Positions 2,473 through 60,960 of a stretch of DNA of 64,000 nt are shown in pieces. How positions within the stretch are numbered: position 1 is the first letter of the stretch; each line of letters starts with the position of its first letter. A program made the translations under genes and the position numbers. The stretch comes from Raillietiella orientalis (lineage: Eukaryota). The DNA is taken from the NCBI GenBank assembly GCA_036172245.1, contig JAYWIR010000038.1, forward strand, positions 620,001-684,000, written 5' to 3'. The notes beneath the pieces were generated by a model. It made no database searches, was not told the origin of the DNA, and worked only from the letters and a program-made list of their open reading frames with translations.

Positions 2473-3235
2473 TTGACGGCCGTACGGCGCGCGGCACATC
2501 GATTCCCGTTCGGGGAAGGATTGACACCGAGTACGGGGGATGCGTCGTGGGTTTACGGGTGCCCTTCCTCCACCCGTAAGGTGATGCTGGTTGGCCTGTA
2601 GGCTTCGGGTGTGGCACTGTCAGGAAGTCAGGAATCCCCGGATGCCCTGATGAGTAGCCGGGATTTGAAAGCTGACTCCCCCGAGGTTTTCCAAGAATCA
2701 AAAAGCCCATCTGGGTTCCCTTCCTCTCCGCTGCAGAGGCAACCCCCGAGTGGGGTTTGCCTCTGCAAAGTGTAAGTGCACCGCTCCCTTTTTGGAGAGC
2801 TCTCCAGAGAAATCGAGAAGTGTCCCTTGGGTTCTCTTCAGAAAAGGAGCAAACAAGTGCGAGTTGTCTCAGTAGAAAAAGTTCCAGGAGCAGATCCTTT
2901 ACTGGTTCACTTCAGAGAGGAAATGAGGAGTGGACCCCTCCGGGGAATCGCTCCAGAGAGAACAAGGAAGAGGAGGTTTTCTTCAGGGTTCCCTCCCAAA
3001 TCGTAAGAGAAGCATACTCCTTCCTCGGAAGCATTCCTGGATTCCATAGGATGGTCTCCCTCCGGGGTCACCTGCTAACTTGAAGAGTCACACGCACCCT
3101 CGGTGGTGTTTGCAGCGCTTAAGAGCTTCGTGGACCGAATCCCCAGCCTCAGCAGTCCTTGAGAAACAAAAAAAATAGGCAGCTGGAAGGAAAGCGGAGA
3201 AAGCAGGAGAACCCAAAGGATTTCATCATACTCGG
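2473..3235 (+). mobile_element. SINE-U copy S1 (near full length, degenerate tRNA-like head)
   Basis: Colinear with copy S3: GAAGGATTGACACCGA, GCGTCGTGGGTTT, GTAGGCTTCGGGTGTGGCAC, CCCCTCCGGGG subunit, TTCCTGGATTC, TTGAAGAGTCACACGCACCCTCGG, CCTTGAG then an A-run at about 3167-3176. Confidence 0.75.
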
Positions 3236-3374
3236 AAAAAACAAAAGACGCAAGGGGCAGAGTAATCTTGGCAAGGTGGGAAGTAACGTGCTGCATAGCA
3301 GCAAAGGCGAAGCTTATGGACAACTCGGGAGGTCACGGACACTGCGACCCCGAGTATCTCACCACATGAACTTT

Positions 3375-4095
3375 TATGGGCTGGGAAGAGCCGCTCCACA
3401 TCCCTCTGGAAGAGGTGGAGTGGCCTCCAGCGTGCTGGGACTGTCGCTCTTCCCCTCCGCCCTTCCCGAGCAAAGCGCACCTACACCATGAAACACGAGG
3501 GGGCTCGTGGACGCTCAATGCGATAGTTGCGGAAAGAAGGAGACCCCCCGCACCTGCTGTTGGGCTCTGATGCTCTCCGACTCCTTTGGGATCGCCTTGC
3601 AACCATCCTCGGAATCCCGGTTGGCAGCCCCAGGGACATTCTTAGACGTCTCTTCGCTCGTGACTCCGCTCTGCCGCCAGCCGCGTCCCTCGCAGTTCCC
3701 TCCTCTTGTTTTTCCTAAATCGCGGCGGTCTGGAACACCAGGGGAAGAGGCCATCCACTGGACGCAATCTTGCAGAAACGGCCTCGCCCGGGAGCTATAC
3801 GGACAGAACTTGCCGGCATCCTGCACATGATGCAGAGGACGCCTGGCAGCGTACCGTGATCGCTTCCTCATTTCCTTCCTTCCCTCCCTGTGTATACTAC
3901 CCTCTCCCCTGTTTTTTTGTTTGTTTCTTTTTTGTTCTTGCTTCCCCTTCCTCCACGCTGCCGAAGGAACCTCGCTGGTCTGAGCACCGGGCTTCGGCAG
4001 ACTCTTCATTGAGTGTAGTGGAACCAGCGGTTCCACCACACCAATGTACTTTTATTACGTCATGTAATGAATGCCCTGGCATAACCGGGTGAGAA
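3375..4095 (+). mobile_element. L1-A copy A1: 5'-truncated L1/Tx1-like LINE 3' end (ORF2 C-terminus plus structured 3' UTR)
   Basis: Frameshifted translation 'WEEPLHIPLEEVEWPPACW...DAQCDSCGKKET-PHLLLGSDALRLLWDRLATILGIP...AVWNTR...ELAGILHMMQRTP' fits the CxxC..ETxxHLL..W pattern of the L1 ORF2 C-terminus; hairpin at 4013-4041 and terminal AACCGGGTGAGAA. Confidence 0.8.
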
Positions 4096-4770
4096 TCATC
4101 CTCCTCGATTCCGTGTTCGTGGATTTGTCGAGAGCGCATTGCCTGGGGGGCTGTTTTCCCTGGAGGACTCCCGTGGGCATATCCCTCGAGCAAGCAGGTC
4201 TTTCTGCGTGCGAATTTTGCTCTCGGAATAGGTCCGTGCCTCTTGTCCCACAGATGGTCACTCGGATTCGCTCCTCCAAGAACAACCCGACTCGCACGAC
4301 GGCCCCGTCTAGTGTCAAGAGTTGACCTCGCACCAGGAGGCTGAGGGTGTGCTGTCTGTTCGGTTGGCTCACGAGCGCGTATCCGCTTCTGGAGAGAAGC
4401 CGCACTCGGTGCCGCCGCTCATCCCCCCGGGACTCTGAATTAAGCCGAAGGGAAAGTCAGTTAATCCGGACGCAGGTGGAGCGCATCTCGGAACGTCAGT
4501 CGTGGGGACGACGGGTGGATTCGTTGCATCTTCCCTGTCACCTCCGTCGACTTGTATGAGCTTGGGAGAGCTGCGCCACATCTCTCTGTAGGAAGTGGAG
4601 TGGCCTCCAGCGTGCCGGGACAGTGGCGCTCTCCCCCTGAAGTGGCAGGAGTCGGCGTTGTTACATGGGGGAATCCTGTGCAAAGCGCGCCTACACCATG
4701 GAACACGGGGGGGCTCGTGGACGCTCAGTGCGACAGGTGAGGGAAGAAAGGGACCCTCCCGGAGTGCCCC
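4096..4770 (+). mobile_element. L1-A copy A2 (internal ORF2 fragment, no 3' UTR)
   Basis: 4555-4760 is clearly similar to 3375-3550 (GTGGAGTGGCCTCCAGCGTG; GCAAAGCGC.CCTACACCATG.AACACG.GGGGGCTCGTGGACGCTCA.TGCGA); translation 'EWPPACRDSGALPLKWQESALLHGGILCKARLHHGT'. The upstream boundary is less certain. Confidence 0.75.
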
Positions 4771-5779: not shown

Positions 5780-6060
5780 GGGTGCTGAGTGGAAAGATGC
5801 GGGAAGAAGGAGACCCTCCCGTACCACTGCTGGACTGCGTTGCCTTCTAACCCCTCCGGGATCGCCTCGCGATGATCCTAGGTATCCCGGAGGACAGCCC
5901 CAGGACATCTTCGGATGCCTCTTCGCACGTGGTGCCGCTCTGCCGCCAGTCGCATCCCTAGAAGTTCCCTCCTCTGCGGGATCGGGACGGTCTGGAACTC
6001 TAGGAGAAGAGGCCATCCACTGGGAGCGGATCTTCCTGAGGACCGCGAACGTCGCGCGCG
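5780..6060 (+). mobile_element. L1-A copy A3 (partial ORF2 C-terminus)
   Basis: Shares GGAAGAAGGAGACCC, GCTCTGCCGCCAG.CGC.TCCCT, GGTCTGGAAC and GAAGAGGCCATCCACTGG with A1. Confidence 0.7.
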
Positions 6061-9500: not shown

Positions 9501-10280
9501 TCCCCCCCCGATAGCGGAGGGCCGATTTATCGTGAATGGAATTTTATCTGAGGAGTGGCACCCGTCGGGGCTCCCATCCTCGGGCGCCGCGCAGTGGGCA
9601 GGGGGGGATTAGGAGGCAGGGGGGTCTCCACGGGATCTCCTCCCAGGGAGACCTCGGGACAGCCGCTGACACCAGCGATCGTCCGTCTCCGGGATCCGCC
9701 TGCGTTCCTGGGACGACGGCCTCTGCGGGAAGGTTCGAGCAGGAGGCGAAACGCTCTGGGGCGGTCCTGTCGTCACGCTCGGATGCTGCTACTGCTGCTC
9801 CTCCTCCCGCAATCAAGACGAAGGGAGAAGGAAAGGGCGCTGCTGTTCCCCGTAAGGAGGGGCGCATCTCGAGAGCAGCTCGAGCGCCGCTCCCCGACGT
9901 CTGCCGGGGTCGCTCGGGGTCCCCTCGTGACCATTGCCCGCTTTCCGCCGCGAAAAAGCGTCCCCAGCTCCTGGGAACACACGTTCCGCAACTTCCCGAC
10001 TCCTGCTTTTCCTCCGTCATTCATCGCTCTAACTGCTTGCTTCTCCCGGACCAACACGCGGGAGGAGATTTTTCCCAAGCGCTGCTGGTCGCTGGTCAGC
10101 GCGGTGTGATGAGAAGCACTGAGAAAAGGAAAATGCAGACCAAACATTCCTTCCCCCGTCCCTCAAAAAAAAAAAAAAAACAAATAGAAAGGAACAAAAG
10201 TGAACAAAAGAAGATTCTTTCGTCTTCTGAGCTTGTCGCAGCTCTCGGACGGAAGGCACCTTTTTGAGGTTGAGGTTGAA

Positions 10281-10770
10281 CCTCAAGGGTGCTTCCAGGA
10301 CATCAAGGGACCCTTCGGGGTTCCCCTCTGATTGTGAAAATGGAGCCACGTCCACCCTCAGAGGAGTCTTCGTGTTCCATGGAGCTGTATGATACCCCTC
10401 ATAGGGGTCGGTTGCCTCTTCGGAGAGCAAGAGCGTCCCTCCAGAGAAAATTGACGGCGTCCCTTCGGGGTTCTCTCCAGAGAGCGGATCCTCCCCGAGT
10501 TTCTTTGTGAGAAATGATCCCCTCCGGAAGTCCACCACCGGAAAGAATAAGGAAGAAGAGGTACCTTTCGGGGCTGCTGCTCCAAGAGTGAGAGAGGAAC
10601 GGAATCCTCCCTCCGGAGGCTTCCTGGATTCATAGGGCGGTCCTCCGGGGTCATTCCCAATCTTGAAAGTCAAAACGCACCCACGGGCGGAGTGGGCGAT
10701 GCTTGAAGATCTTCTCGAGCCCAACCTCTAAGGAGGCGAACGGTTCTTCAGCACCCCTTGAGGGTCAAAG
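10281..10770 (+). mobile_element. SINE-U copy S2 (5'-truncated)
   Basis: TTCCAGGACATCAAGGGACCCTTCGGGGTTCCC, further CCCTTCGGGG/CCCTCCGG subunits, TTCCTGGATTCATAGGG and the conserved 3' block CGGTTCTTCAGCACCCCTTGAGG. Confidence 0.8.
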
Positions 10771-11424
10771 GGATAGGAAAATGGGAATCGCGATGGCCCC
10801 TTTCGCAGGGAGCCCGGAGTCTCCTGAAGCCGCCATGGGCTGAAACTATAAGGGACGTTCCAGCTGAATCTCAAACCCAGCGATGAAACTCCAGCTGACT
10901 TCCACGACCTGGAGTCTCTGGTGAAGCCGGCACGTGCTAATCAGTTCGGCTTCGATAGCGGGGAGTTGGAGCACCTGCCGCCACGTGGGGGCATCGGCAC
11001 GCCGACCCCATCGAGGGTATGCCCACTTGTGGCACACGGCTTTGAGCATCAGGCTCCACTGTCCCCTCATGTCGGTCCCGTTTTTCTCAGACGATTGCAA
11101 CCCAGAGACGCGGAAGCTGAACGCCACTACAACTGTCTTCGCGCATCTTTCGCGGAAATCATCCTGCTCTTCATTCTTTCAGCCTCAACTTGTCCTTCCC
11201 TTTCATGAGACGAGACGGAAAGAGCGCTGACTTCATGCTAGATGGCTTCCAGACACTCTTCGAAGCCAGAGGATGTCCTCAGCAGGAACGCTTGTCTCGC
11301 GAATGCCACAGGAACTCTGGAAAGACGGCTACTTGAAAGCGAGCTTTCGAGGTCAGGGTACGCAGCAACCTGCTTCCTCTTCAGGTCTTCCGGAAGCTTC
11401 TGTGAATCTTCTTGAGCTCTCCTG

Positions 11425-12157
11425 GCTAGCGGCCATGTGGCTGCGGTCTCCGCACGCGCGGCACCAAGCGTTGTGGGTTTGAATCCTGCCTGGTGAAGGA
11501 TCGACCCCTCGAGAAATGGGTGCGTCGTGGACTTCGAGTCCCCCCGCAGGATGATGCTGGGTGATCAGTAGGCTTCGAGTGCGGCACCCCTGGACTCCTC
11601 CGATGAGTAGCCTGGATTTGGAAGCCCTCCTGACCCTCCGGGCTTCCTTCCAGGACATCAAGGACTCGGTTCCCTTCGGGGTTCCCCTCCGGTTGTCCAA
11701 ATGGATCGGCCCCCCTCAAGGGGACTCCCTACATCCGTACCATGGAGTTGGTGGATGAATACCTCTCCAGAGTATGAAGAAGTGAGCTGCTCACTTCGGG
11801 ACCGACCCTTCAGGGAAATTCCCTTCGGGGTTTTCCTCTCCAGAGGAGGAAACAGGCAGAGGATTCTTTCCGCGTTCCCTTCGGAGAAGAAATAAGGGAG
11901 TGGCTCCCTCCGGGGGTCATTCCAGAGAGAACAAGAGGAGATTCCCTCCGGGGTTCCCTATCAAGCGTAAGAGAGGAGCGGACTCCCACTTTCGGAGCCT
12001 TCCTGGATTCATGGGGTGGTCCCTTCCCGGAGTCACCTCCTATCCTGAAGAGTCGCACGCAACCTCGGACGGCGCGGACAGCGTCGAAGAGGAGCTCCGT
12101 CAGTCCCCCCTGAGGAGGCGGACGGTTCTTCAGCACCCCTTGAGGACCAAAAAAAAG
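11425..12157 (+). mobile_element. SINE-U copy S3 (most complete uninterrupted plus-strand copy)
   Basis: A-box-like TAGCGGCCATGTGG (about 11427), B-box-like GGGTTTGAATCC (11475), second T-arm GTGGACTTCGAGTCC (11527), subunit array 11630-12030, CGGTTCTTCAGCACCCCTTGAGGACC then A9. Confidence 0.85.
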
Positions 12158-12639
12158 GTCAGCACGCGTGGCATTGAAACAGGGCAAAGGGCGCACGTGG
12201 TTTCCGCGTACTGTTCCACTTGCCCACCGTGGTCTTAACAGTTTCGCAAAGCTTCTTCGCACCAACAGCTCTTGCAAACTGCAAAGTGGATGCCAGAGGA
12301 CGACCCTCCAGATGCTGCTGGGTGCAGACGTCCCGTTTGATGAGGCGGATCGCTTCTGACCTTGACCGGGAACACAACACTAGGGTGAATCGAAAGACCA
12401 TGCGATTTTATTCTTATTATGGTTGCATTTGAATGAAGGCATTGCGAAAACTTTCGTTTTTCTGTTTTTCAAGACCTCCGGGATTACTTTTCAAGGAAAC
12501 CCTTGCTTCACTCCATTCCAGATGATTCCTGAAAGCTAAGCAACCCTTGTCCCTCTGTTGTCCCTTTGATCACTTACTCTTTCCTTTTGTTTAAAAATCG
12601 ATCCACTCGCGATGCTTTTGTCTGATAGTCTGATAGTCG

Positions 12640-13012
12640 CACCTGCCTTTGGACTGCGGTGCCCTCCAGGGACTGTGGAGGAAGAGGCTGGCAGCAGCAC
12701 TCGTGCACCAGGAGGACACTGGTCGAGATGTGCTGCCATGGTTCTTCGAACCGGGAGGACTCTAGACAGGAGTGCTCGCAACCATGGGTTGCAACCGCGC
12801 CATCGTCATGGCCCACCATGTGTTCTGACCATGCAGCGAAGGGAGGTCACCAGGATGGCAGTCGCCTACATGAGGACGCTGCAAGGTGATCTCACCTGGA
12901 AGAAGTGAAGGAGGAGATCGCCGGCATCTCGAGCCGGTTTGAGGAGAACTAGGAACTGCGGACACCAATGACCCTTGTCCCCTGCTTCCATTTATTTATT
13001 TATTTATTTATT
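12640..13012 (+). mobile_element. Possible 3' end of another L1-like LINE with a (TTTA)n tract
   Basis: 'RREVTRMAVAYMRTLQGDLTWKK*' loosely resembles the L1-A C-terminal helix region; TTTA repeats at about 12990-13012. Confidence 0.25.
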
Positions 13013-13249
13013 TTCTCATCCCCCGTCCCTGTTCGCTCCGTAACTTCTCCGGTATTCTTTTTATCCCGGTGTCTCACGGAGCGGACTCAAAGATTCCCAT
13101 CCCATCTCATTGCATTTATTTTTTTTGTTGTCTCCCGATCCCATCCCTCGTTTCGGCCTTTCCGTTGTCCCAGCCTGCGTGCCAGTAAACTCTCCCCTTG
13201 AACTTCTTTCGTCGTCGGCTGGGAACTCCGTTCCCAACTGGTTCATTTT

Positions 13250-15164: not shown

Positions 15165-15286
15165 TTCTCAGGGCACTGGGCATGCCACAGCATTGATGGC
15201 TCCTCAGGAATTCCTTTCTTAGAGTGTAATGCAAGGGCCACCTCGTAGAACCAACAGCATGCACTCACAAGCCGCGGTTAGTGAGT

Positions 15287-17300
15287 GCAAAGGTCTTCGA
15301 CTCATTGGATCACGTCATGCTGGAGCGGGGAACTAGGCTTCCCCATGATCTTTAGCAGCGTGGAGAAGTACGTGGCAGAAGTACGTGGAGAAGTCACTCT
15401 GGAGGAAGCCAACTTCACTATCAGCGTCAACGGGCCCACGTCGCAGAACATCAGGATGGGAAGAGGAATCCGGCAGGGAGATGCCCTGAATCCCACGCTC
15501 TTCTTACTGCACATGGAGGCGGTAAACGCTTCGTCCAAAACGAGAGCCGTCTCAGGAACCAAATAAAGAAGAAGAAGAGCTTTCTGGGAGAAGAAGAGAG
15601 CAACATCACGCTACTGGCCTAGGGCATCGACCTGCTCTTCGTCATATCAGACGAGCGGGATTCCTGGGCATCGTTCAGACCATGGAGTACGGCCTCGCAC
15701 TTAATTTGAATCCCAGAAAGTCTCATCTGCTCGCCATGGTAATACCGGTAATATCCAGCGTCCTCCGCGCCCATGGCTTCCACGGATAGTGTCAAGTACC
15801 TTGGGATACAGATCGGCGACGAAACACCAGCCCTGGAATACCAGCAACGGTCGGCCATCCTGGCCAAGCTGCTCAGAGAAACCAGCCACTACGTCGGAGC
15901 CTTCTCCTTGCCGAAGGACAAGACCAACCTCTGGAACGGATTGATGGTGCGCCAAAGTTCCTCTTTGCCACGTCTTTCCTTACGATTCCCTTGAGGACGG
16001 CAAAAGAGCTAGCTGTCATCCAGATGAACCTGTTCTGGAGCTGCAGAATCCAAGGCGAAGCTGAAGTACCTGTGTCGCCTGCTGACGGAAGGAGATACCG
16101 GCATGCGAGACATCGCCATTGGCGTGAAGCTGCAGGACCTCAGACATCTGATCCGAATCGTCAGCGTAGGATGGGACGCTTGGCCGTTCATGTTCCACTG
16201 CTCCTTGGCAGGGCTGGTGCACGGAATCGACGGCCTCATGACCACCATGCCGCTCACCGCGGACGACAGGAGGCAAGTGGACCAGACATGGCTACGAATT
16301 CAGCGTCTCCTGTGGACTTTCCAACTGAAGATCGTGCCAAGGAGCAAGGAGCTCTGGGTAAGGTGATCACGCTGTTCATTACCGTCCCTTGGGAAACGAG
16401 GACCTGGATCCAGAAGACCAGAGAAACGACGTTGGAGGAGTTGGACTGTAAAACAGCGTGGTCATCCACGCACGACTAGTCTTCGTGTACAAAAAAACAT
16501 TGGAGGTGAGAGTAACCCACAGGTCGTGCAAGCTTTGGTAAGACCAAGGTACGCAGTGGTCCAGGTCCAGATAAACAGCTTCAAGTTGCCAGGACCATTG
16601 ATCCCAAGGGAACAACGGAAAGAATGAGGAATGGGCTAGGGAACGCCGGCCTTTATCAGGGCGATCGGGACGGTCCTGTGGAGATCCTCCTTGCCGCCGG
16701 ACATTCAGGATCGACTCCTGATGTTCTACTACGGAGGCATCTTGTGCGGCACGAGACCCCAGCACTGGACCGCTAACCCCGACAACGATCAGTGTCCCAG
16801 TGTCCAGTGTCAACGACCAGACCAGTGCGGGTCAACAGAGGACGACCTGCATATCTACATCGCCAGACCCTCGTATAAGATTAGAGAGTGGCAAGTTGGG
16901 CGATAGAGATGGGCAACACGCTGAAGATGGAGACCCTACGAGGACTCTTCAAGGGTGAAGACAGCGTGCCCTACTACAGCCCCACGGGGGGGTGATCACC
17001 TCCTTCTTCCTGAGGAGAATCCTCATCAGAAGAACGAAACTGACGCTTGGAGACATGTGCAATATCAGGGACACCCTAAGTGGAGACTCCTGAAAAGGGA
17101 GACAAACATCCGGACTTGCGGAAGAGTAGCATTTTGGACTCTCCCGCAGTGCCTGAGAATACTCAACGACGCGTTCAGGACGGTGCAGTGCCCTACCCAT
17201 GAGGGCCGCAGTGTTTCGAAAGCGACCCAGCGGTCACAGTAATGATTATGTGTTTTGTCTGGTGTACGTGTCTGTAGTATGCATGATTATTGAATAAATC
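15287..17300 (+). mobile_element. 5'-truncated L1/Tx1-like LINE ORF2 pseudogene (second family), RT through zf-RVT and 3' UTR
   Basis: Ordered motifs 'AKVFDSLDH', 'ISVNGPTSQNIRMGRGIRQGDALNPTLF', 'ITLLA*GIDLLFV' (decayed YADD position), 'YGLALNLNPRKS', 'VKYLGIQIG', then 'LLMFYYGG...CPSVQC...EDDLHI'; AATAAA at about 17293. Confidence 0.85.
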
Positions 17301-19213
17301 CATCACCTCGAGCCGGACTGGGGAAAGAGTGCAAGGGTCGATCCAAAGGACTGGTCGCGGTTCCGCCACCCTCGAACACGTCGACGTGGTCCAGGAAGAA
17401 TTCGCTCGATCCGGGGTCCCATCAGCACACCCGCACGACCTCTTGCCACGGCTGCTCTTCTTGCGGAAGGAACGCGCGAGCGAGTTGGAACTGCAGCTCA
17501 AAACATTCTGTTTGCACATCCGTCAGTCGTGGCTTCCGCAAATGGATTGCAGCTTCCTGCTTTTCGCGGCTGGCAACCCTCTCGTCCCGATCTGCTGCAC
17601 CAGGGAACGAGCCAGCAGGCGTGTGCGAAATACTTTAAAGCAGCCGGGCACACATGAGCAGGTCAGGCCCCGCGAGCGGAAGCCACTCTGCATGAATTGA
17701 CCTTCTGGCCCTGCCTCATAGGCGTGAGACCTTTAGGTGACGCTTTCCCAACACATCCTTTAATTGAAATCGCATCCCGACTGGATACTAGGCCTTTCAG
17801 GGAACATTATTTCCTTCGAGGATTAAGTCTTGCTCAACGAGTTGACATCCCCCTCAAGCAAACGCCCCTAAGAAGCCTTCTAGGTAAACTTTCGCCAAAT
17901 TCCTTGTCTTCCTTCTAAGACGGCGGCCTCCGCCTCCGGCGGACTGAACAGTATTTTGCAAAATCTCCCATCGGTTACATTACATACATACGAGGACCTA
18001 AAAGTTAATCTGAATCCCGCTATGATTCGTTCCACTTGACGAACTTGTATGTTATCGTTTCCACTTGCTGTCGGTTTGGCACAAGAGGCACCTACTTCAG
18101 CTCCGTGTACCGCCCTCTTTTGTCGCTGCTCCACCCCGTCGTCAAGTAAATCAGTTCGTTGCTAACAATCTCGTGTTGCAAACATATCAGCCTCACAGTT
18201 ATTGATAGCAGCAACAGCCTCCTGCTTCCTGAATGAGATGCGTCGCCCTTGCCCGGTCACACCTTCCGGTACGTCCACCATGCCACGAGTTATCTAATCG
18301 CACGCCAAGCGGCGGACTCGATGTTTATCGCATCCGGATTGTCTCTTATCGCAAAATCTCGCAGCTTCTTCATCCCATTCCAGTACGAAAGGTACATTCG
18401 CGCATCCGAAAAATTAGAACGCTTTGGTTCATTTCTTCTTCTATCGAATCCAGGTTCGAACTGCCCAACTGCCCTTCATCAGGAAAATCCGTTATTCCCG
18501 GGGAAACGGGACGGCAACACCAAGGAACCAAAGAAGATGGGTTTCTCTCAAGCTAAGAAAACCCACCACCGCCAACTCCCTTATGCCCTTCCCCACCCAT
18601 CCACTGCCTGCTCCAGGGCTTTCGGTTCTCCTCTGCGGATGGTACCTACGAAAAAAAAAACCTACAATTGCACTACGAATTGGGGCTCGTCAACCAAGGT
18701 ACGAGTCATCTCAGCCTTTCCTCCACGCTGGCCGCAGCTTCCGGAGCACACAGTTCGTAAGAATTAGCTATTCCGAATCTATCGCAATCTGTCTTCCTCG
18801 AACCTAAACGCGGCGCGCGCCATGAGAGCCAGCGATAACTCAGACATGAAAACGGTTGCTGGCGGCCCGAGCATATTCAGAGTCTAAATTTAATGCACCT
18901 CCTCATTTCTGCCGCGTGAGTAACAACACGTCAGTCAAGAAATTTTCTCCCTCGTTGCGACCTCAACCTTCTCATTCCGAAGGAAACTCTGGTTCTGATC
19001 GTGAAACCAAAACCAAGGCAAATTTGAACCGTAGAATAAATAGATGCTTTAGAGTGCGGAGGTTTTTGAACTGAAAAACGACTCCAAAGTGCGGAACCTG
19101 GGGGAAGGGTGTGGAGAAAACCGTCGCAGGTGGGTTGGCACGACTGCCTCTGCAGAGATTTCTCGGTTCCCTAGGGAAACCTCGGAAGGATACGGGAACC
19201 ATGGGGGTCAGTT

Positions 19214-20000
19214 CGGTTTATCACCAGTTCACGCCGGGATGTTTAATATAAAAAAAGTAATAAACGTACACGTGTAGGGCCATCGGCCCTACATCGTCAG
19301 AAAGTGTTCGGAACTGGTCGAGGAACCGAGGCGCAGGACGGCGAGGTTTGCCTCGGCAGCGGAGGGGCAAACAAAAATGAAAACAAAACAAAAATCAATA
19401 ATAAAAAAAAAAACTCTGAGGGGAAAAACGGGAAGGGATCGTTGTCCTCTGGAGGGTGTCCTCTGCATCCTTTTCAGGATGCCGGCAAATTCTATCCGGA
19501 TGTGCCTCAGGTGGGGCCATCTTGCTGCCGTCCGCAGGAAGCTCAGGGCGAAACCGATGGCGTCCCTATCGCGCCGTCCTCCTCTCGCGTGACTCCAGGC
19601 CACTGCAATCTCGCGTAGGCAGCAGCAAAGAGCTGCTGGGGATGCTGCAGGCGAAAGGGCATCGCGCACGAAGAGGCGCTTCATCACTCCCCTGGGATTG
19701 TCCGTCGGTGCACCAAGGGCCGTTGCGTAACGCGGTCGCGTTGAGGTGCCGGAGGGCAACACAGTGCACAAGCAGGTGCGGGATCTGGGATTCGCGTTTC
19801 TTGCAGCTGCAACAGTTGGGGTCCACTGTCCCCCGGGTCTAGTGAGAGCTGAGGACGTTGCATGGAAGGCCCAGTGCAACGGGAAAGTGTCGACTCCTGC
19901 CACTTCCGGGGGAGGACTCGGCTGTTCATCAGCGCTGGGGGCCACTCGAGGTCCTCCTGTGGGATACTCAGAAGCTCACCCCAGCTAAGTGGTCCTTTTG
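19214..20000 (-). mobile_element. L1-A copy A4 (ORF2 C-terminus plus complete 3' end)
   Basis: 'WGELLSIPQEDLEWPPALMNSRVLPRKWQES', 'CCSCKKRESQIPHLLVHC', 'FLRTAARWPHLRHIRIEFAGILKRMQRTPS'; hairpin at 19273-19293; ends GAACTGGTGATAAACC. Confidence 0.85.
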
Positions 20001-20436
20001 GTTCCTTGGGGTCAAGTCGGCGTGCTACATGCGAGACAGAAGTGTGGATTCCTACCGCCTTCGGCTGCCTGCCCATGTGCCTCGCGTGGGGCACGTTTCA
20101 GTCTTTGCAAGAGAGCTCGGCTGCTCCCGCAGCGAAGGATGCAACCCAAATTTTCTCTGTTTGTCCCTTCGGGAACCCTCAAAAGGCCTGCAAGGGGTCC
20201 TTACGGGATCGAGAGATCCGTCTCCAAGAACGGAGGTGGCGTGATGGCTCGCCATTACCCGAGGAAGGCAACTGCGCTTGCAGAGGAAAAATCCTTGCTG
20301 GACCCCGTGTGCACGTTCTATTCTTTGGCAGGCCACGGACTTTCGACAGTAAGGTTTTTTTATTGCTTTGTTTTCCTTTTTTTTCAAAAAATGCCAGTAG
20401 CGGCCGAACATGGACACCGTTGCTATGGGTCTAAGA

Positions 20437-20950: not shown

Positions 20951-20964
20951 CTAATGAGACCTAG

Positions 20965-21762
20965 GATGTTGGCAATCCTTTATGGTTCTCTTTTCGCTGC
21001 CTTCCTTCAAGCTTTATTTTTTTTCGGTGAGGAAGACCGAAATTTTCGGGTTCTTTTTTTTTGGTCTCAAGGGGTGCTGAAGAACCATCCGTCTCCCTAG
21101 GGGGAGGGGCTCACGAAGCTCTTCAGTGCTGTCCACGTCACCCGATGGCGCGTTGACTCTTCAAGATAGGGGGTATTCCGAAGGGACCACCCAATGAATC
21201 CAGGAGGGCTCCGGAGAAAGGAATCCGTTCCTCTCTTATACTTGGTAGGAACCCCAAGGGAACCTCCTTAATTCTCTCTGGAGGGACCCCCCGGATGAAG
21301 ACTTATTTTTGGGGAGATCCCTGGAAAGGAAGAGAACCCCAAAGGGACGCCTTCCGATTTCTCTGAAGGGCTGTCCCGGAAAGGAGCAGTGCTCTTCTTG
21401 ACACTCTGGAGAGGCGACTCCCTGAGAGGGATGCCGACCAGCTCCATGGTACGCGATGGTACGGCTCTCTCTTCGTCACTGAAGGGGATCTCCGAGGCTC
21501 CGTCATTCCCGGAAAGGCTCCAGAGGGTCCACTTCCAGTCCCGGTCGGTCAACAGTGTCATCCGGTGGTTTCCGGATCCAACCAGTGCCTCACCCAAAGC
21601 CAGCCAAGGCCAACCAGAGTCATCCTGCAGGGAAGGGATTCGTAAATTCATGACGCACCCCCCGTTATCGGCGTCGATCCTTCTCCCTGGGCGGGATTCG
21701 AACCCGCGACGCTCGGTACGCCACGCGCGCCGAGGACTCAGCCGCAAGGCGCCGCCAGCGCT
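20965..21762 (-). mobile_element. SINE-U copy S4 (full length)
   Basis: Perfect T-arm GCGGG-TTCGAAT-CCCGC on the minus strand (21691-21707), body subunits, and 3' block GGTTCTTCAGCACCCCTTGAGACC plus A-run at about 21054-21086. Confidence 0.85.
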
Positions 21763-21789
21763 GGCCTTGCGGATTTTTTGGAAACTTTT

Positions 21790-22140
21790 CAGAGGAAGAG
21801 GAAACCGGGAGCGATTCCCTCGTGGGTTCCCTGAGGAGAGCAAATTTCAGGATCGGATCCTTTCTGGGTTCCCTTCGGAGGAGAAACGAGGAGCGGCCCC
21901 CTTCGGGGTTCCCCTCTCAAACGTGAGAGGGGAACGGACTCCTTCCTTCAGAGCCATCCTGGATCCGTGGGGTGATACCCTTCCGGGGTACACCCTATAA
22001 CTTGAATAGTCAAAACGCTCCTCCGGGTGACGTGTACAGTGTCAAAGAAGAGCGTTGGGAGCCTCCGGGCGAACGGCTCTTGCGTGCCTGGCAGACCAGG
22101 AAAAAAAACAAAAACAAAAAGCAGAATAAGGAAGGGAAGC
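21790..22140 (+). mobile_element. SINE-U copy S5 (5'-truncated, back-to-back with S4)
   Basis: GGGTTCCCTTCGGAGGAGAAA, CCCCTTCGGGGTTCCCC, CCTGGATCCGTGGGGTG, ACTTGAATAGTCAAAACGC and an A-rich stretch at about 22101. Confidence 0.75.
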
Positions 22141-23580: not shown

Positions 23581-23619
23581 TGGCGGGAAGGGGGGGGGGA
23601 GAGAAGACGCGCTTCCTCC

Positions 23620-23692
23620 TCTTCTTTCCTTTCTTCCTTTTTTCCTTCTTCTTCCTCCCCTCCCTTCCTTCCTTCCTCCTCCTCCTCTTTTG
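23620..23692. repeat. Pyrimidine-rich low-complexity tract (CTT/CCT/CCTT)
   Basis: Directly visible C/T-only run; similar tracts occur at about 36500-36590, 44685-44780 and, as purine-rich runs, 55768-55840 and 56166-56217. Confidence 0.85.
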
Positions 23693-32619: not shown

Positions 32620-33880
32620 TGGAAACACTTCGGGTTTCTTCTGTTTTCCCTTCCTCCTATCCAGCTTCATTTTTTCTTCCGGGTTTTCTTTTTTTCTGGT
32701 CCTCAAGGGGTGCTGAAGAACCGTTCGCTTACTTAGGGGGAGTCACACAAAATTCTTTCAACACCGTCTACGCTGCCCAAGGGTGCGTGTGACTCCGCAT
32801 GACCCCGAGGGAGCACCCTATGAATCCAGGAAGGCTCTGCAGGAAGGAGTATGTTCCTCTCACGCTTGGCGGGGAACCCCAAGGTAACCTTCCACCCCGG
32901 TTGAGCCCCATTTCCGCCCAGGCATCCAGGGACGTTTCTTGAAATTTAAAGGAAATTCGCAAATTATGGTAGGACGCGTGGTCCGACCACACTCCGTTTG
33001 TCCACGGACCTGTCGGGTCGTCCGTATGCAGACCGGCGGGACTCAGAGACCAGCAGCGGAGGGGGGGAGAAAACAAAAATAAAAATAAAATAAAAGAGCA
33101 AATGCAAATAGATGGGAACACTCTGGACGGTCGGGAGGGGACCACTGTCCGCTGGAGGGAGTCCTCTGCATCCTTTCCAGGACACCAGCCAGGTCCGTCT
33201 GTATACTTCCCGCAGGTGGGGCCGTCTGGCTGCGATCCGTAGAAAGCGAAAGTGCTCACTCGATGGCGTCGTTCGCGTTTCTTTCTCCGTCGGCCTCGCT
33301 CCGGGAAGCCTCAATCCCGCGAATGCAGCCAAGGTCTTCTCCGAAGGGACTCCAGGAAGGATCCGCTCCAGAATTTCTTTTCCGTAGTCAACCCTCTGGG
33401 GAATCGCTCCCTGTTTCATCCTCTGAAGAGAACCCCGAATTTCTCAGAAGGGTAGCATTCCCGAGATTCCATTTCACGAGATTTTCTCAGAAGGGCCCTC
33501 TTTGACGGGAGCAGGCCAGCCCCCGAAGGAGGTATCAACCAACCCCATGATAGGCGACGGAGGGTCTCCTCACGGGGATAGGGGACAACTCCCTTTTCAC
33601 ATCCAGAAGGGAACTCCAAAAGGCTCCCTGGTTCCTGAAAGGACCCCTTAGGATCAACTTTCAATCCCAGAGGTCAACCAGCGGGAACATCCAGGGGTTT
33701 GCGGCTTCCCACCAGTGTCGCACCCGAATAGGTCAGCCTGGTGTCCTCCCGGGGGGGAGACTCAAAGCCCACGATGCACCCACTCATTTCTCGGCGTCCA
33801 TCCTTCCCTGGAAGGGATTCGAACCCGCTACGCTTGGTGGTGCCATGTGCGGAGACCTCAGCAGCCACGTAGCCTCCGAT
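32620..33880 (-). mobile_element. SINE-U copy S6, interrupted by L1-A copy A6
   Basis: Head GCGGGTTCGAATCCC at 33814-33828 (minus), body 33295-33700, 3' part 32620-32910 with AACGGTTCTTCAGCACCCCTTGAGGACC plus A-run. Confidence 0.8.
32912..33295 (-). mobile_element. L1-A copy A6 nested in SINE-U S6
   Basis: 'HFRFLRIAARRPHLREVYR'; GGATGCAGAGGAC motif; hairpin GTGGTCGGAC-CACGC-GTCCTACCAT; terminal CCTGGGCGGAAA. Confidence 0.75.
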
Positions 33881-35149
33881 GCAGGCAGGTGAGGAAAGAG
33901 GGGGGTTGCACGCGGATGAGAGACAAAGAGAGCGGAGACAAAAGGGCCAGGATGCCGGCGCGAAGGCAGCACCTCTCTCTCTCATCCCCTTTCCGCTTCC
34001 TCTGTCTTTCTGGAACGACCCTTTCTCTCAAGGTCGTCCTCCTCCTCCGTCAAGTCCCGTCACCTCCCGGCGGAGGCGAGGCCGAAAAGCGCGAGCCCTC
34101 AAAGAGGTCGAGGGTCCCCAGCTACTCACTCCGACCGCTCATGACGCAGGCGTCGCCTCCAAGAATGTACCCGCCGGGTTTATCTGTGTTTGCTCAGCCG
34201 AGAACTCGTTGGCTGCGGCGGAGGCGGCCTTCCCGTAGCGGCGACGCTGGAGCGGTTTGGAGTAACACCCGCTTATCTTCGGCTAAGCCACGTTCGGTGC
34301 GTCACGCGACCTAAATAGGGCGTAGAGGGAATGCGGACTTCCTCGAGAGATCTCTCTTTCGTTCGCCGTGATATCAGGGATGAAACTTGCCGCTCCTCCC
34401 AGCGACAGGTGCGACAGGTCGGCGCTCCTTCGGGCGGAACCCGACCTCGCTGGTAGGAAGATCGTCTCCAGCACGCCGACGAACCGGTCGGTGAGGCACG
34501 CGCACCGCAAGAGTCTCGCTGTCACCGTCGGTCGCCGGCACCAGCAGGGGTGCCAGCGTTCCCTCTTCCCACTGTTGCGGGGAGCCGAGTGCACTGTTTT
34601 CGTTTCGTTCTCTTTTCGGCGAGACTTGCAGCTGCCTCGCCGGACCAAACGCTCAGCGGCAGCGCTCGCCCCCTCCACCCTCACACCCCTTTCCTCTGGT
34701 CCTCTAGATGCATTTGGCACCCTGTCTGCCGGGAAGAGGCACCGGGGAATGCTGCCGTCCCCCCCCCCAACCCCAGTCTCCCTTCACTCCCTGCTGATTG
34801 CTCGCTGCGTCCGCGTTCTCTCACAGGAGGTGCCGGAACGAACGCGTCCCTCGCAACCGCATCAACGGCTGAATCGCGAATTGCGGGGGAGGTTCGTTGT
34901 GCCAATTCCGACGCCGGGAACATGGATTCGTGCACCTGACCCGTGTAATCACTGCCTCCTCCCCTCAGATCGGGGAAAGGGAACCTTTCTTTTTGGGGGA
35001 AGTGAGCCGGTTAGTTCGGATGAAGGGGGAGCAGCGTGCTTCAGGAATCTGCTCCGCCCGAAAACGATCCGCACAAGAGGAGGAGGAGGAGGAAGAGGAA
35101 GGGAAGAGGAAAAAGGAGAGGGGTGGATTTTAATCCCGGCCAGTCAACG

Positions 35150-35335
35150 GAGCTTCCGGAGTCCGCCAGTGCCGCACCCAAAGCCTACAGGCCAACCAGC
35201 ATCATCCTGCAGTGGGACTCGAAACCCACGACTCACCCCCCATTCTCGGCGTCGGACCTTGCCCGGGTGGAATTCGAACCTGCAACGTCTGGTGCCAAGC
35301 TCGAGGAGGTCGCGGTCACACAGCTGCCAACTCAG
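35150..35335 (-). mobile_element. SINE-U copy S7 (head only)
   Basis: Minus strand: GCAGGTTCGAATTCC..GCAAGGTCCGACGCCGA..GTCGTGGGTTTCGAGTCCCAC..GATGATGCTGGTTGGCCTGTAGGCTTTGGGTGCGGCAC. Confidence 0.8.
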
Positions 35336-39084: not shown

Positions 39085-40735
39085 GGATGATGGAAATCCT
39101 TTGGGTTTCTTTCTTGTTTCCCTGCCTTCCTTCTAGTCTTTCTGTTTTTGTTTTTTTTCGGGTTTCCCTTTTTTTACGTTCGCAAAGAACTCGAGAGCCA
39201 TCTCCGTTCTCCCGGGGGCTCATGAAGTTCTTCTTCGAGCACCGTTCTCGTCACCCGTGTGTGTATTTTGACTCTTCAGGATGGAGGGCACCCTGAGAGG
39301 GGTCCACCCTGTGAATCCAGGAAGGGGGGGGGGAAGGAGTTCGTTCCTCTCTCACGATTGGGAGGGGAAAGCCCGAAGGGGACCCTTGCCCTGGTTTTCT
39401 CCGAGGAGAACCACAAAGGGAACTCACTATTCCTTATTTCCTCTGGAGAGACCCCCGGAGGGGTCCACTCCTTATTTCCTCTCCGAATTGAATCCGGAAA
39501 GGACCCGCTCCTGGAACTCTCCGGGGACAACCAGCTCGTTTCCTCCTTCTCTGAAGGGATCCCCGAAGCGACACTTCATGATTTCCTTAGAGAACGGACC
39601 CCCCCCCTGAAGGGAGCAGAGAGCTTCTTCCACACTCTGAAGAGGTATCAAGCCGCTCCATGGTACGCGATGGAAAGCTCCATTTCCACAACCGGAGGGG
39701 AAAAAACCCGGAGAGTCAGCTTCCAATCCCGGCCACTCAACGCTAGTTTTTTTCTCTTACCGGAAACAAAAACTAGGCGTGGACGACGAGCGAAGATCTG
39801 CATTAGCCCCCGGTGCTTATAGACACCCTCACCCTCCCCTTGAAGTGGCAGGAGCCTAACGTTGATGCAGCTGCTACACTGGGGCCTCCCGTGCAATGTT
39901 CGCTGGCATCGCTGGGGACGCGGGGAAGGGATGGACCCAAACAGTGCAAGGTGTAGGGAGCGGGAATCCCTCTCGCATCTGCTAGTGGACTGCGTTGCCC
40001 TCCTGTCCCTTTGAGGACTCTCTGCCGTACCCGTGGAATCCCCGGTGGCAACCTCAGAGATGTGCGACTCCTCTTTGTGTGGGATGCCTTGCAGCCAGCC
40101 GCAGCCCCAGCAGCACTTTGATGCCTCCACGGGATCGTGGCGGCGTGGAGCGACGCCAACGGAAGAACCAACCCCATGGACGCCATCCACTTTGCTCCTC
40201 GCTTTCTACGGATAGCAGTCAGATGATTCACCTGGATGATAACATGAAATAAGACCTTGCCTGCATCCTCCAAAGGATGCAGAGGACCTCCCTCAGTAGA
40301 CTGTGATCCCTTCCCGTACCCCCCCCCCCCCAGAATTGTTTTATTTTTGTTGGTTGGTCCCTTCCCTCTGCTGCTGCGGTGGATCTTACCGGTCTGCGAA
40401 CCAGTAAAACGGCAGGGTACATACAAAAAGGACGTAGTTGGACCACCGGTCCATCCATACAAACTGTAAATGTTTCTTTTATATTTGAGTAAACCCCCGG
40501 CGAACCCGGGTGAAAACTCAGCGGGAGCATCCGGCATCCCACCAGTGCCGCACCCGAAGAGGCCAACCAACGCCATCCTGCGGGGGAGAAGGAGAAGGCT
40601 CGAAATCCAGGACGCGTCCCCCCCTTCCCCCTCCTCCCGTTTTCGGTGCGTCAACTCTTCCCCTGGGCGGGATTCGAACCCGCGATGCCCGATGCCCCGC
40701 GCGCGGGGACCTCCGCAGCCTCACGGCCGGCAACG
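39085..40735 (-). mobile_element. SINE-U copy S8, split by opposite-strand L1-A copy A7
   Basis: Head GCGGGTTCGAATCCCGC at 40667-40683 (minus) running to about 40520; the body resumes at about 39742 and runs to about 39085. Confidence 0.8.
39743..40515 (+). mobile_element. L1-A copy A7 nested in SINE-U S8, with a candidate 8-bp TSD
   Basis: CCCCTTGAAGTGGCAGGAG (LPLKWQE), GGACGCCATCCACT, GGATGCAGAGGACC, UTR hairpin at about 40434-40458, end AACCCGGGTGAAA; flanked by ACTCAACG (39735-39742) and ACTCAGCG (40516-40523). Confidence 0.8.
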
Positions 40736-40899
40736 CGGGTGAAAGGGGAGGATGAGCTGCATGCGGTATCTCATATCAAAGGTCTTTTCCCCTACAGCTC
40801 GGACGAGATATCGCCAAGACAGAGGAGAGGGGTGGATGACCTTTATCGAATGACCCTCTGCACTACGGGAGGCGCGATCCGTCGAACAGCCGCTCCGGC

Positions 40900-45321: not shown

Positions 45322-45530
45322 CGCCGGCGGCGCCATGCGGCTGCTGCTGCGTGCGATCTCCGCACGTGTGGCACAGCCAGGCGCCGCGGATTCGAATCCC
45401 GTCCGAGCAGAAGGGTCGACGCCAAGAAATGAGGAGAGCGTTGTGGGTTTTGAGTCCCCCTCCCGCAGGATGACTGGTTGGCCCGTATGCTTCTGGTGGG
45501 ATTCGGGTGCCAACGTCGGCACCGGAGTGC
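45322..45530 (+). mobile_element. SINE-U copy S9 (head only)
   Basis: GCGGATTCGAATCCCGT (45386), GAAGGGTCGACGCC, GCGTTGTGGGTTTTGAGTCCCC and CCCGCAGGATGA. Confidence 0.8.
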
Positions 45531-58796: not shown

Positions 58797-59960
58797 GTTT
58801 ATCACCCGGATTTGCTGAGGTGCGTTTATTATAGAAATAATAAAAGTACAAAGAAACAGCCATGTGATGAACCACTTGGTTCATCACGTCCGTCTAACTT
58901 GTCGATCACCGGTACGGAGACCGGCGAGGTCCGCTCCAGCGGCTAAGGAGGAGGGAAAACCACACACACAAAAAAAGAAAATACAAAAAAGAGGGAGGGA
59001 AATGTGTCTTGGGGAAGAGAGGGCGGGCAAGGGATCACGTATCACTGGGAGACGTTCTCTGCATTCTGTCCAGGATGCTGACAAGTGGTGTTCTTGTGTT
59101 GCCAGGTGGAGCCATCTCGACGCAGTCTTTAAGAAGATCCGCGTCCAGGGTATGGCGTCCCTGACATTCTGGCCTCTCCTTTCCCTGTTCCAGACCCCCA
59201 CGATCCCGCGGATGCAGTAGAGAACTGCTAGGGACGCGGCTGGCGACAGAGTGACATGAGCGAAGGCGTTCCCAAAAATCCCCTGGGGCCGCATGCTGGG
59301 ATTTCTAGGATCGTCGACAGACGATCCCTGAGGGTTCGGAGGGCGGCGAGTCCACCAGAAGGCACGGGAAGGTTTCTTTCTCGCCGCACCTTTCGCAACG
59401 GGCATCCACGCTCTCCAGTGTCCAGTGATGGAGGCGCGCTTTGCACGGGATCTCCCCACCTCCAGCAACGCCGGCTGCTGCCACCATTCCAGCACGCTGG
59501 GGAGGGCACTTCACCTCCTCCAGAAGCATCGCGAGCAGCTCGCCCCAGCGTAGCAGTCCTTTTGGCGGGACACTCGGTCCCGAGCTCTCTGGTAGGTCGC
59601 TACTTTGCTCTATCCACCGTGGCCATCCTGATCGTTTCCCGAATCGTGTTGTATCGCGCAGTGAACCAACGACAGCGTCTCTTGCGTCAGTTTCAGATGT
59701 GAGGCAACGTTTCGTCTTCCGTCTGGCAGCGCCGGCATGCGCTGCCGGACGGACCAAGCTGACGGTTCCTTCGGGTCTTCCCCCTGATCGATCTGCGCTC
59801 ACTCTCCGTTTGGCGCGGCAGTGTTGACGGAGATCTGTGTCGGAGAGTCCTCGACCTCCTCCTATGTCCCAACTCCATGGCACAATGGAAGGCACCCCGA
59901 GACGGGAGTCGACTCCAAGATGCAAACTGAAGGGCTTGACGCTTCGTGACCTCTGGAAGG
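58797..59960 (-). mobile_element. L1-A copy A11 (longest, about 1.15 kb)
   Basis: 'WGELLAMLLEEVKCPP', 'PCKARLHHWTLESVDARCERCGEKETFPCLLVD', 'LYCIRGIVGVWNRERRGQNVRDAIPWTRIFLKTASRWLHL'; perfect hairpin at 58864-58887; end AATCCGGGTGATAAACC. Confidence 0.85.
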
Positions 59961-59969
59961 ACCTCAGTC

Positions 59970-60190
59970 GGTCCTCTCCGACTCCGGCTAGCCGACGGGG
60001 ATACCCAGCCTTCAGAGTGCACAAGCACCACCCCACTGCCATATCCGAAGCCCTCGAGCCAAGTTACTCGACCCGAAACCCACGACGTAGCTCCTATTCT
60101 CGTCGTCGGTGCTTCCCCGGGCGGGATTCGAACCCGCGACTCTCTCGGTGCCGCGCGAGCGGAGGTCGCAGCCCCACGGCGCCGCCAGCG
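59970..60190 (-). mobile_element. SINE-U copy S10 (head joined to L1-A A11)
   Basis: Minus strand: CTGGCGGCGCCGTGG..GTCGCGGGTTCGAATCCCGCCCGGGGAAG..CGTCGTGGGTTTCGGGTC..GGCTTCGGATATGGCA. Confidence 0.8.
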
Positions 60191-60204
60191 CGGGTGCTTC
60201 TTCG

Positions 60205-60960
60205 TCGTTCCTTCTTTGGGAGGCAAAACTCTTTAACGCTGTTCCAGCCATCCGAGGGTGCGTATCAACTCTTGAAGATAGGGTTTATCACCCGGTTGCA
60301 CTGGATATTTATTATAAAAAAATAATAAACGTACACGTGTAGGCCCTACATCGTCAGAAACTGTTCGGAACTGGTCGAGGAACCGAGGCGCAGGACGCCG
60401 AGGTTCGCCTCGGCAGCAGAGGGCAAACAAAAATCAATAATGAAAAAAAAACTCTGGGGGACCAAACGGAAAGGGATCGTTGTCCGCTGGAGGGCGTCCT
60501 CTGCATCCTGGTTTTCTCCTCTGGAGGGAACCCCGGAGGGACGCTTCCCAATTTTCCCTGAAGGGCGCTCCCCGAAGGGAGCAAGGCGTTTCACGCCCTG
60601 GAGAGGTGTCAATCCTTCAGCCTCTTGATACGGGATGTAGGGGTTCCCTTGAGGGGAGGACGGCTCCATTTTCCTTACCAGAGGGAACCCCGAAGGGTTC
60701 TCTGATGTCCTGGAAGGAACCCCGGAGGGTTCACTTCCCATCCCTGAAGCCAGTCGACGGGGACATCAGGCTTCCCACAAGTGCCGCCACACCTGAATCC
60801 CGTGGGGCCAACCAGCGTCGTCCTGCAGGGGGAGAATCGGAACCCACGAAGGACCTGTTTCTCAGGGGAGATCGACCCTTCCTCCGGGCGGAATTCTAAC
60901 CCGCAAACACCGGGTCCCACCAGCGGAGGAGGCTGCGGCCGCACGAGGCCGCCGTCGCGG
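60205..60960 (-). mobile_element. SINE-U copy S11, interrupted by L1-A copy A12
   Basis: Head GCGGGTTAGAATTCCGC at about 60888-60904, UNCG subunits at 60531, 60570, 60688 and 60720; 3' part TATCTTCAAGAGTTGATACGCACCCTCGG at about 60250-60281. Confidence 0.8.
60282..60508 (-). mobile_element. L1-A copy A12 (3' UTR) nested in SINE-U S11
   Basis: Very similar to 19214-19480 (TAATAAACGTACACGTGTAGG..CCCTACATCGTCAGAAA.TGTTCGGAACTGGTCGAGGAACCGAGGCGCAGGACG); ends AACCGGGTGATAAACC. Confidence 0.85.

Follow-up and report, generated by a model that had tools for sequence, protein, structure and literature searches.

The stretch of DNA analyzed here, 64,000 nucleotides of Raillietiella orientalis contig JAYWIR010000038.1 (hereafter the window), carries at ~11408-12156 a repeat copy, designated S3, whose central part is punctuated by palindromes of the form CCC-TYCG-GGG. 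The question that this locus raises is whether these palindromes have been kept by selection as hairpins of an RNA, or have simply been multiplied together with the DNA that contains them. The original prediction, made from the sequence, took S3 to be a short interspersed nuclear element (SINE) with a tRNA-like head, and interpreted its body as a string of hairpins capped by UNCG tetraloops and selected for their RNA structure. S3 belongs to a dispersed repeat family with a common anatomy and an internally duplicated body, and the copies of this family have decayed at background rates, without covariation among them. The explanation we favor, with a probability of about 0.68, is that S3 is an old copy of a SINE-type non-autonomous retroposon, the body of which is a tandemly amplified subunit and the copies of which have decayed neutrally by ~20%.

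The presence of the CCC-TYCG-GGG motif was confirmed at every coordinate listed in the original prediction. In S3, CCCTCCGGGC is located at 11634 and CCCTTCGGGG/CCCTCCGGGG at 11672, 11821, 11906 and 11944, while GGGACCC-TTCG-GGGTTCC starts at 10307, within a second copy (S2), and the minus strand contains GAACCC-TTCG-GGGTTC at 60685-60700 and GAACCC-TCCG-GGGTTC at 60717-60732. The window holds 14 instances of CCCTYCGGGG, compared with 1.26 +/- 1.10 in 100 dinucleotide shuffles, none of which reached 14. All 14 instances fall within copies of the S3-type family, in sense orientation, and they must therefore be regarded as related by descent and not as independent events. In the family consensus, C-U-N-C-G-G is present at 7 subunit positions of the sense strand.

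Profile searches of the window with nhmmer identified 15 sense-strand pieces of the family, distributed over both DNA strands, with E-values ranging from 1e-222 to 2e-12. After joining pieces split by fragments of a long interspersed nuclear element (LINE), these correspond to ~11 insertions, which together take up ~5.8 kb of the window (~9%). The family model comprises 717 columns and was seeded from S3, so that the consensus is biased towards this copy, and the informative sample consists of 8-9 copies only. The copies other than S3 are as follows.

2487..3175, plus strand: S1, model columns 26-717 (nhmmer E 1e-138)
10271..10769, plus strand: S2, 5'-truncated, columns 192-712 (nhmmer E 2e-103)
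21053..21765, minus strand: S4, full length, 0/7 hairpin cores intact (nhmmer E 2e-151)
21779..22105, plus strand: S5, 5'-truncated, columns 396-717 (nhmmer E 3e-79)
32690..33890, minus strand: S6, detected by nhmmer as 33874-33334 and 32892-32690, with a LINE fragment inserted in between at 32897-33340
35126..35326, minus strand: S7, head part only, columns 2-196
39168..40745, minus strand: S9 (40729-40468) and S8 (39742-39168), nhmmer pieces with a LINE fragment between them at 39792-40517
45333..45500, plus strand: S10, head part only (nhmmer)
59864..60195, minus strand: S11, columns 4-317, its head being the sole tRNA call of ARAGORN at default settings in the window
60196..60960, minus strand: S12 (60945-60490) and a 3' piece (60295-60221), with a LINE fragment between them at 60281-60511

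S9 and S8 probably represent one insertion interrupted by the LINE fragment. The 5'-truncated copies S2, S5 and S8 begin at columns 192, 396 and 173, respectively, and all of them extend to the 3' end, as expected for LINE-type retroposition. In an independent DNA run, 34 contigs match S3, solely within 11388-12180 and with the flanks uncovered; since 24 of the 34 are less than 90% alike to S3, the family is multicopy in this independent data set as well. No Pfam family was detected in those open reading frames (ORFs) overlapping family copies that were among the 150 scanned. Together with a B box matched exactly in 4 of 8 heads, these ~11 insertions agree with the initial view of S3 as a dispersed, non-coding repeat with a tRNA-like head.

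That view had placed the element at 11630..12040, an interval that does lie within the repeat copy; the element itself is wider, extending over ~11408-12156. On the plus strand, S3 is composed of the following parts.

11408..11499, plus strand: degenerate tRNA-like head, defined by an alignment of 8 heads, with a B-box-like T-arm, GGGTTTGAATCC, at 11475-11486
11526..11545, plus strand: second T-arm-like box, GTGG-ACTTCGAGT-CCCC, directly past the head (S3 sequence and family alignment)
11619..12040, plus strand: body, a degenerate array of ~40-bp subunits (motif positions, autocorrelation and self-alignment)
11634-11643, 11672-11681, 11792-11801, 11806-11815, 11821-11830, 11877-11886, 11906-11915 and 11944-11953, plus strand: hairpin cores within the body (motif scan)
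~11711-11722, ~11983-11997 and ~12013-12037, plus strand: variant palindromes within the body (sequence)
12041..12148, plus strand: non-repeated 3' region (family alignment columns ~600-700)
12149..12156, plus strand: A8 run closing S3 (sequence)

In the family model, the body spans columns ~190-620 and is followed by a unique 3' part of ~100 bp (columns ~620-700) and, last, by the A-run, with the array making up ~60% of the element length. Four of the 8 heads match the B box GGTTCGAATCC exactly and the remaining 4 with 1-2 mismatches, and the second box is kept as GGGTTTCGAGTCCC in the family consensus (columns ~100-118). Run at its default threshold, ARAGORN called a tRNA in one of the 8 heads (60114-60195), and with a relaxed threshold it called 2 of the 8, as well as the head consensus. 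No clear A box was identified in the family heads. The description of the element as tRNA-headed is a plausible one, based on a degenerate likeness. Seven copies extend to the 3' end; six of them carry a run of at least 5 A, and the seventh (S2) has AAA in its place.

As had been proposed, the body consists of ~40-bp palindrome-bearing subunits in degenerate tandem arrangement, separated by purine-rich linkers. Autocorrelation of the consensus body peaks at lag 41 (z 4.3) and lag 79 (z 5.5), and unanchored self-alignment of the consensus equates 200-246 with 466-518 (81% over 53 nt, E 7e-8) and 380-440 with 465-519 (74% over 61 nt, E 4e-4). Within S3 itself, 11634-11686 matches 11906-11958 at 78%. 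A two-hairpin unit, consisting of a TCCG hairpin followed by a TTCG hairpin, is present three times in the consensus, and 28-56 nt indels separate the copies within the array. Eleven units can be aligned as a purine linker, (G)GA(A/T)CCC-TYCG-GGGTTCC and CTCC-AGAG-AGGAA, in an alignment that is partly circular because it is anchored on the motif. Tandem Repeats Finder reported no array in 11430-12157, even at a score of 30, because the units are too diverged for it.

This organization can be accounted for if tandem amplification within the source gene, by what would have been slippage or unequal exchange, multiplied a ~40-bp palindrome-bearing subunit, in part in the form of a ~55-60-bp double unit. 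Each subunit would consist of a GC-clamped palindrome, CCC-TYCG-GGG, followed by a pyrimidine tract and then by a purine tract. RNA polymerase III (Pol III) would have transcribed the element from its tRNA-like head, and a LINE would have reverse transcribed the product, as suggested by the 5'-truncated copies with a common 3' end, after which the genomic copies would have decayed neutrally by ~20%, hairpins included. Given tandem amplification of one subunit, the string of "UNCG hairpins" would be one hairpin-bearing unit inherited ~ten times. In RNA the units would probably form short, local GC hairpins; these would be a by-product of the repeat, any benefit to the source RNA being hypothetical.

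The sequence divergence of the copies bears directly on the proposal that the hairpins are under selection. Loop positions 1 to 4 are unlike the consensus at 8/50, 8/49, 13/50 and 9/49 sites, respectively (0.16, 0.16, 0.26 and 0.18; 49-50 sites per position), and the two stem sides at 34/146 (0.23) and 21/146 (0.14). The corresponding values are 640/3079 (0.21) for the non-hairpin body and 285/1604 (0.18) for the head part, meaning that loops and stems change at background rates. The original prediction had held that the loops vary mainly at the tolerated N, but this second loop position differs from the consensus at 8/49 sites, versus 13/50 at position 3. Instead, TCCG and TTCG represent a fixed difference between neighboring subunit positions, one that is found again where the double unit is duplicated, which indicates that it was copied with the duplication and does not reflect tolerated variation at N. 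CpG decay was also considered as a cause of the loop changes and rejected, with CpG transitions at 0.13 versus 0.108 at other C/G sites and an observed/expected CpG ratio of 0.89 in the window.

Base pairing among copies gave a similar picture. Across the ten named hairpins, which comprise 56 pairs and 353 cells, the paired fraction of the cells is 75.6%. Shuffling gives the same mean, 75.6%, with the observed value reached or exceeded in 253 of 500 shuffles; RNAalifold, applied to 8 body-bearing pieces, yielded -3.48 kcal/mol with a covariation term of +1.59 and recovered no named UNCG hairpin, both tests being low-powered with 8 sequences, all of them dead copies. The folding energy of the S3 body is unremarkable (z -2.13 sense, -1.51 antisense), as is that of the consensus body against dinucleotide shuffles (z +0.09 for global folding; z -1.7 sense and -2.0 antisense for pairs within 40 nt). 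The minimum free energy structure of the consensus holds the hairpins H1 (198-211) and H2 (228-245), the other hairpins being displaced by competing pairings, and pairing between the purine and pyrimidine tracts is promiscuous. A register with a CUUC loop yields longer stems than UUCG at some sites (e.g. 11 bp at 11823), so that UNCG is not the only possible reading of the motif, and several stems consist of only 3 bp followed by U-U mismatches.

Selection on a beads-on-a-string structure, as originally put forward, therefore finds no echo in the copies of this window: loops and stems follow the background, covariation is absent and the folding energy is ordinary. The consensus folding with RNAalifold that the prediction itself had called for contains none of the named hairpins when applied to the window copies. 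Loop mutation at background rates and a lack of stem covariation, which had been named beforehand as the outcome that would speak against such selection, are what this small sample displays.

Several observations nonetheless weigh against our explanation, some of them concerning the hairpins and others the assignment of the family to the SINEs. Regarding the hairpins, tetraloops on stems of 3 bp or more occur 42 times in the consensus body, compared with 22.3 +/- 4.6 in 500 shuffles, and its UNCG-loop hairpins number 5 on the sense strand versus 0 on the antisense strand (shuffle mean 0.28, maximum 3, n=500). In the outer stem arms, that is, at positions beyond the CCC/GGG core, 79 of 140 cases show pairing with the arm's own partner. 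Permuting the 3' arms among the hairpins within each copy gives a mean of 67.5 +/- 4.5, and a count of 79 was reached in 13 of 2000 permutations; the 35 outer-arm instances are homologous copies of 7 sites, and the p-value is consequently inflated. The arms are self-complementary in subunit-specific ways (GAACCC/GGGTTC, GCTCCC/GGGAGC, GACCCC/GGGGTC, GGTGGTCCC/GGGGTCACC), and we take this outer-arm pairing as a weak hint that complementary arms may be specific to subunits. C(UNCG)G is intact at 23 of 49 sites, where 16.9 would be expected from the divergence of each copy, or 18.7 from the 38% retention of control 6-mers, an excess that is small and non-significant. Retention of the hairpins is also uneven, with S12 (4/4 intact, best kept of all copies), S8 (5/6) and S3 (7/7) set against S4 (0/7), S1 (1/7) and S6 (1/7). 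Moreover, dead copies decay neutrally whatever the source gene underwent, and the negative tests are hence silent on selection acting there: the hairpin string appears not to be under selection in the copies of this window, which leaves room for its maintenance in a source gene.

The best-surviving alternative, which we nevertheless consider unlikely, starts from that room. It holds that the source Pol III RNA was kept by selection as a beads-on-a-string c(UYCG)g array, valued for its stability or for multivalent binding, for example of a partner-LINE protein such as its reverse transcriptase or a chaperone. The restriction of UNCG-type loops to the sense strand, the outer arms that differ between subunits yet stay self-complementary and the slight excess of intact loops would all fit this idea. 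So would the distribution of T-runs of 4 or more: the full-length S4 has none, and the copies do not have them in common, a pattern that is compatible with Pol III read-through without being significant. Against it stand the background decay of loops and stems, in which N is not the variable position, the pairing among copies at its shuffled value, the failure of RNAalifold to recover a hairpin, a folding energy no better than that of shuffles and no better in sense than in antisense, the competition of CUUC with UNCG registers at some sites, and stems that in several cases have only 3 bp before U-U mismatches. The sense-only orientation also follows from duplication of one unit, as a single ancestral unit copied in one orientation gives the same picture. 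A more specific version, in which ~ten c(UYCG)g hairpins, each with a compensated outer stem of its own, are maintained by the source genes as a multivalent array within a Pol III transcript of ~800 nt, where they could act as a scaffold recruiting the protein of the partner LINE or as protection of the long RNA, is one to which we would give long odds.

The observations concerning the class of the element are mostly negative. The Rfam tRNA model did not match at E<=1 in the whole window or at E<=10 in S3, none of the 5 flank pairs examined shows a target-site duplication of at least 7 nt, and the SINE profile matched no LINE sequence in the 64-kb window, where a LINE with the 3' end of the SINE was looked for. 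Short target-site duplications may have been lost at a copy divergence of ~20%. In addition, the A-run of S1, S4, S6, S8 and, in part, S5 is succeeded by an extension, ~95 nt of purine-rich sequence that S3 and S2 lack. Its occurrences in the first four copies, which end in a ...GGATTTCCATCATCC-like sequence, are as follows.

3176-3250: purine-rich extension of S1
20958-21052: purine-rich extension of S4
32600-32689: purine-rich extension of S6
39060-39167: purine-rich extension of S8

Because this extension is common to S1, S4, S6 and S8, the A-run is internal in a longer form of the element. LINE remnants adjoin or interrupt several of the copies, and the window contains the following sequences of this kind.

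19190-20127, minus strand: 3' part of a LINE, used as query copy, with a CCHC knuckle in frame, a T-rich 3' untranslated stretch and no poly(A)
3251-4116, 4557-4738, 5804-6046, 12637-13014, 20411-20953, 32897-33340, 39792-40517, 43263-43721, 51694-52111, 54389-54794, 58792-59566 and 60281-60511: 12 further matches to this LINE
15285-15900, extending to ~17700, plus strand: decayed LINE reverse-transcriptase region, with GIRQGD..NPTLF and KYLGIQIG in different frames

The better-scoring matches (8 of the 12, plus the query copy) have one common 3' boundary and varied 5' truncation. A fragment of this LINE is nested in three SINE copies (S6, S9/S8, and S12 with its 3' piece), a number not clearly above chance for 12 LINE and ~11 SINE copies in 64 kb. 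LINE fragments also adjoin S1 and S4 head to tail and in the same orientation, with junctions near 3251 and 20953 and at LINE query coordinates 20127 and 19768, respectively; these junctions are possible LINE insertions into the A-rich end, or else template-switch chimeras. As the LINE family lies inside three SINE copies and abuts two others, it was active at or after the spread of the SINE. The two LINE remnants of the window show no likeness to the SINE tail, and the hairpins are not found in the LINE 3' ends.

These features can also be taken to mean that the family, instead of being a SINE, is part of a larger or different element: one module of a composite retroposon whose true 3' end lies past the A-run, or a chimera formed with the adjoining LINE fragment. 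We regard this as unlikely too, close behind selection on the source RNA. The ~95-nt extension is common to S1, S4, S6 and S8 and has no occurrence in the window away from family copies, and S1 and S4 are each followed head to tail by a 5'-truncated LINE fragment; the lack of target-site duplications, a length of 717-830 nt that is long for a SINE and the absence of an Rfam tRNA match to the head point the same way. The LINE nevertheless joins S1 and S4 at different query coordinates (20127 versus 19768), so that the two are no single fixed element, and S3 and S2 end at the A-run. The canonical B box in 4 of the 8 heads, the tRNA-like fold found by ARAGORN, and the 5'-truncated copies with a common 3' part that fit LINE-type retroposition likewise favor a SINE-type retroposon.

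Outside the family, CCCTYCGGGG pairs spaced 18-45 nt apart were found in at least 121 metagenome stretches, some of which have 2-3 evenly spaced matches, and the SINE profile detected no homologous sequence among the 121 matches listed. GC-clamped TYCG hairpins are a widespread motif that is not specific to the S3-type element. That the clustering of motifs arose by chance, or from the composition of GC-rich DNA with purine and pyrimidine tracts, is highly improbable, because even though shuffled bodies fold about as well as the real sequence and the paired motif is common in unrelated DNA, no shuffle reached the count of 14 motifs (1.26 expected), UNCG hairpins number 5 against 0.28 and the body is homologous to itself (E 7e-8), so that composition is refuted as the cause of the motif count and stands for the overall folding energy only.

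The remaining features of the window provide context for the family. G+C content varies between 48 and 65% in 2-kb steps, and the sequence looks eukaryotic. Over the whole window, CpG is not depleted (observed/expected 0.89) and TpA strongly so (0.44), while AA/TT stands at 1.26. The window has 273 stop-to-stop ORFs of 110 aa or longer, and Pfam searches detected no family in the longest 150 of them or in 43 further ORFs (~12.5-18.8 kb and 58.6 kb), for a total of 193 scanned. The dinucleotide ratios and the lack of Pfam domains suggest a gene-poor, repeat-rich region in a genome without CpG methylation decay. A dinoflagellate spliced-leader motif matches the window twice at 3 mismatches, with 2.2 matches expected. 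Passages of PMC4337577 portray a coccidian genome with many old LINEs and DNA elements and do not mention SINEs, a picture with which the window is compatible but which it does not test. The reverse-transcriptase region at 15285-15900 is broken by frameshifts and stops; its 93-aa ORF (15285-15563) points to RVT_1-type clusters in the ESM Atlas (0.94-0.95), Pfam searches of the ORFs of the region gave no match at E<=0.01, and the ORFs with the highest GC3-GC2 difference (G+C at third minus second codon positions) in the window are all located there. A protein search in the near-length range returned no homologue at E<=0.001 for the 228-aa ORF of the LINE fragment. Rfam searches of the whole window produced nothing at gathering thresholds, and those of S3 at E<=10 returned one chance match to a microRNA model only.

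Two further structures were noted. The sequence at 23582-23677, in which a pyrimidine tract comes after a purine tract, folds into a long hairpin that matches three microRNA models at E<=1, with 26-29 bits against gathering thresholds of 60-99, most likely a compositional effect. At 27076-27133 and 27555-27612, in the most A+T-rich stretch of the window (48% G+C), 58-nt inverted repeats that are 90% complementary lie 421 nt apart, and the pair looks like a remnant of a DNA transposon of the miniature inverted-repeat type.

The S3-type family illustrates that tandem duplication of a single palindromic unit is enough to produce a string of "extra-stable tetraloops", and that dead genomic copies are no basis for arguing selection on such a string. 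Searches of the literature found three short strings of the element in no paper searched, and the papers listed for SINEs and tetraloops describe no UNCG array in a SINE body in their titles or the openings of their abstracts. Should the family be undescribed and its source lineage have kept the hairpins, it would offer a tractable case for the role of a repeated RNA hairpin in retroposition; if undescribed, it would also add a CpG-undepleted genome to those with long composite SINEs. Were the source RNA indeed selected as a hairpin array, the body of this SINE would be built from a selected RNA repeat and not from LINE- or CORE-type sequence.

Among known systems, the closest are the tRNA-derived SINEs mobilized by LINEs, which are non-coding and combine a small-RNA-like head and a B box with an A-run or a LINE-like 3' end. 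The S3-type family resembles them in its B-box head, its lack of coding capacity, its A-run, its dispersal in both orientations and its 5'-truncated copies, and differs from them in its length (717 columns, up to ~830 with the extension), in the internal array that takes up ~60% of it, in the degenerate head, in the lack of detectable target-site duplications and in having no LINE in the window that shares its 3' end. The SVA (SINE-variable number tandem repeat-Alu) elements of hominoids are likewise non-autonomous, with a GC-rich tandem-repeat middle, an A tail and Alu-like and SINE-R modules, and without a Pol III tRNA-like head. As SVA is generally described, the likeness is one of layout only, namely a central array with length variation at the scale of its unit (28-56 nt indels here); the anatomy of the S3-type family gives no sign of Alu-like or SINE-R modules or of the hexamer repeat of SVA, and the family is not a member of SVA.

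Internal arrays as such have precedents in EhSINE1 of Entamoeba histolytica and in the zebrafish DANA SINE, both of which contain short tandem repeats that vary in number between copies, although the organisms, base compositions and units differ, as far as general descriptions of the two allow comparison. In stringent pairs such as UnaL2/UnaSINE1, the LINE reverse transcriptase recognizes a single terminal hairpin common to LINE and SINE, whereas the hairpins described here are internal and repeated, and the 3' ends of the LINEs in the window lack them. By analogy with these pairs, recognition by a LINE reverse transcriptase would be the most plausible function of the hairpins, if they matter at all. 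The likeness to c(UNCG)g, the extra-stable RNA tetraloops, extends to the sequence motif, which is how the loops are known here, and is qualified by the many stems of only 3 bp and by the competing CUUC register. The S3-type family thus falls within a known kind of non-autonomous retroposon, and has a less common layout within it: a VNTR-like array of one hairpin-bearing unit that occupies ~60% of the element length.

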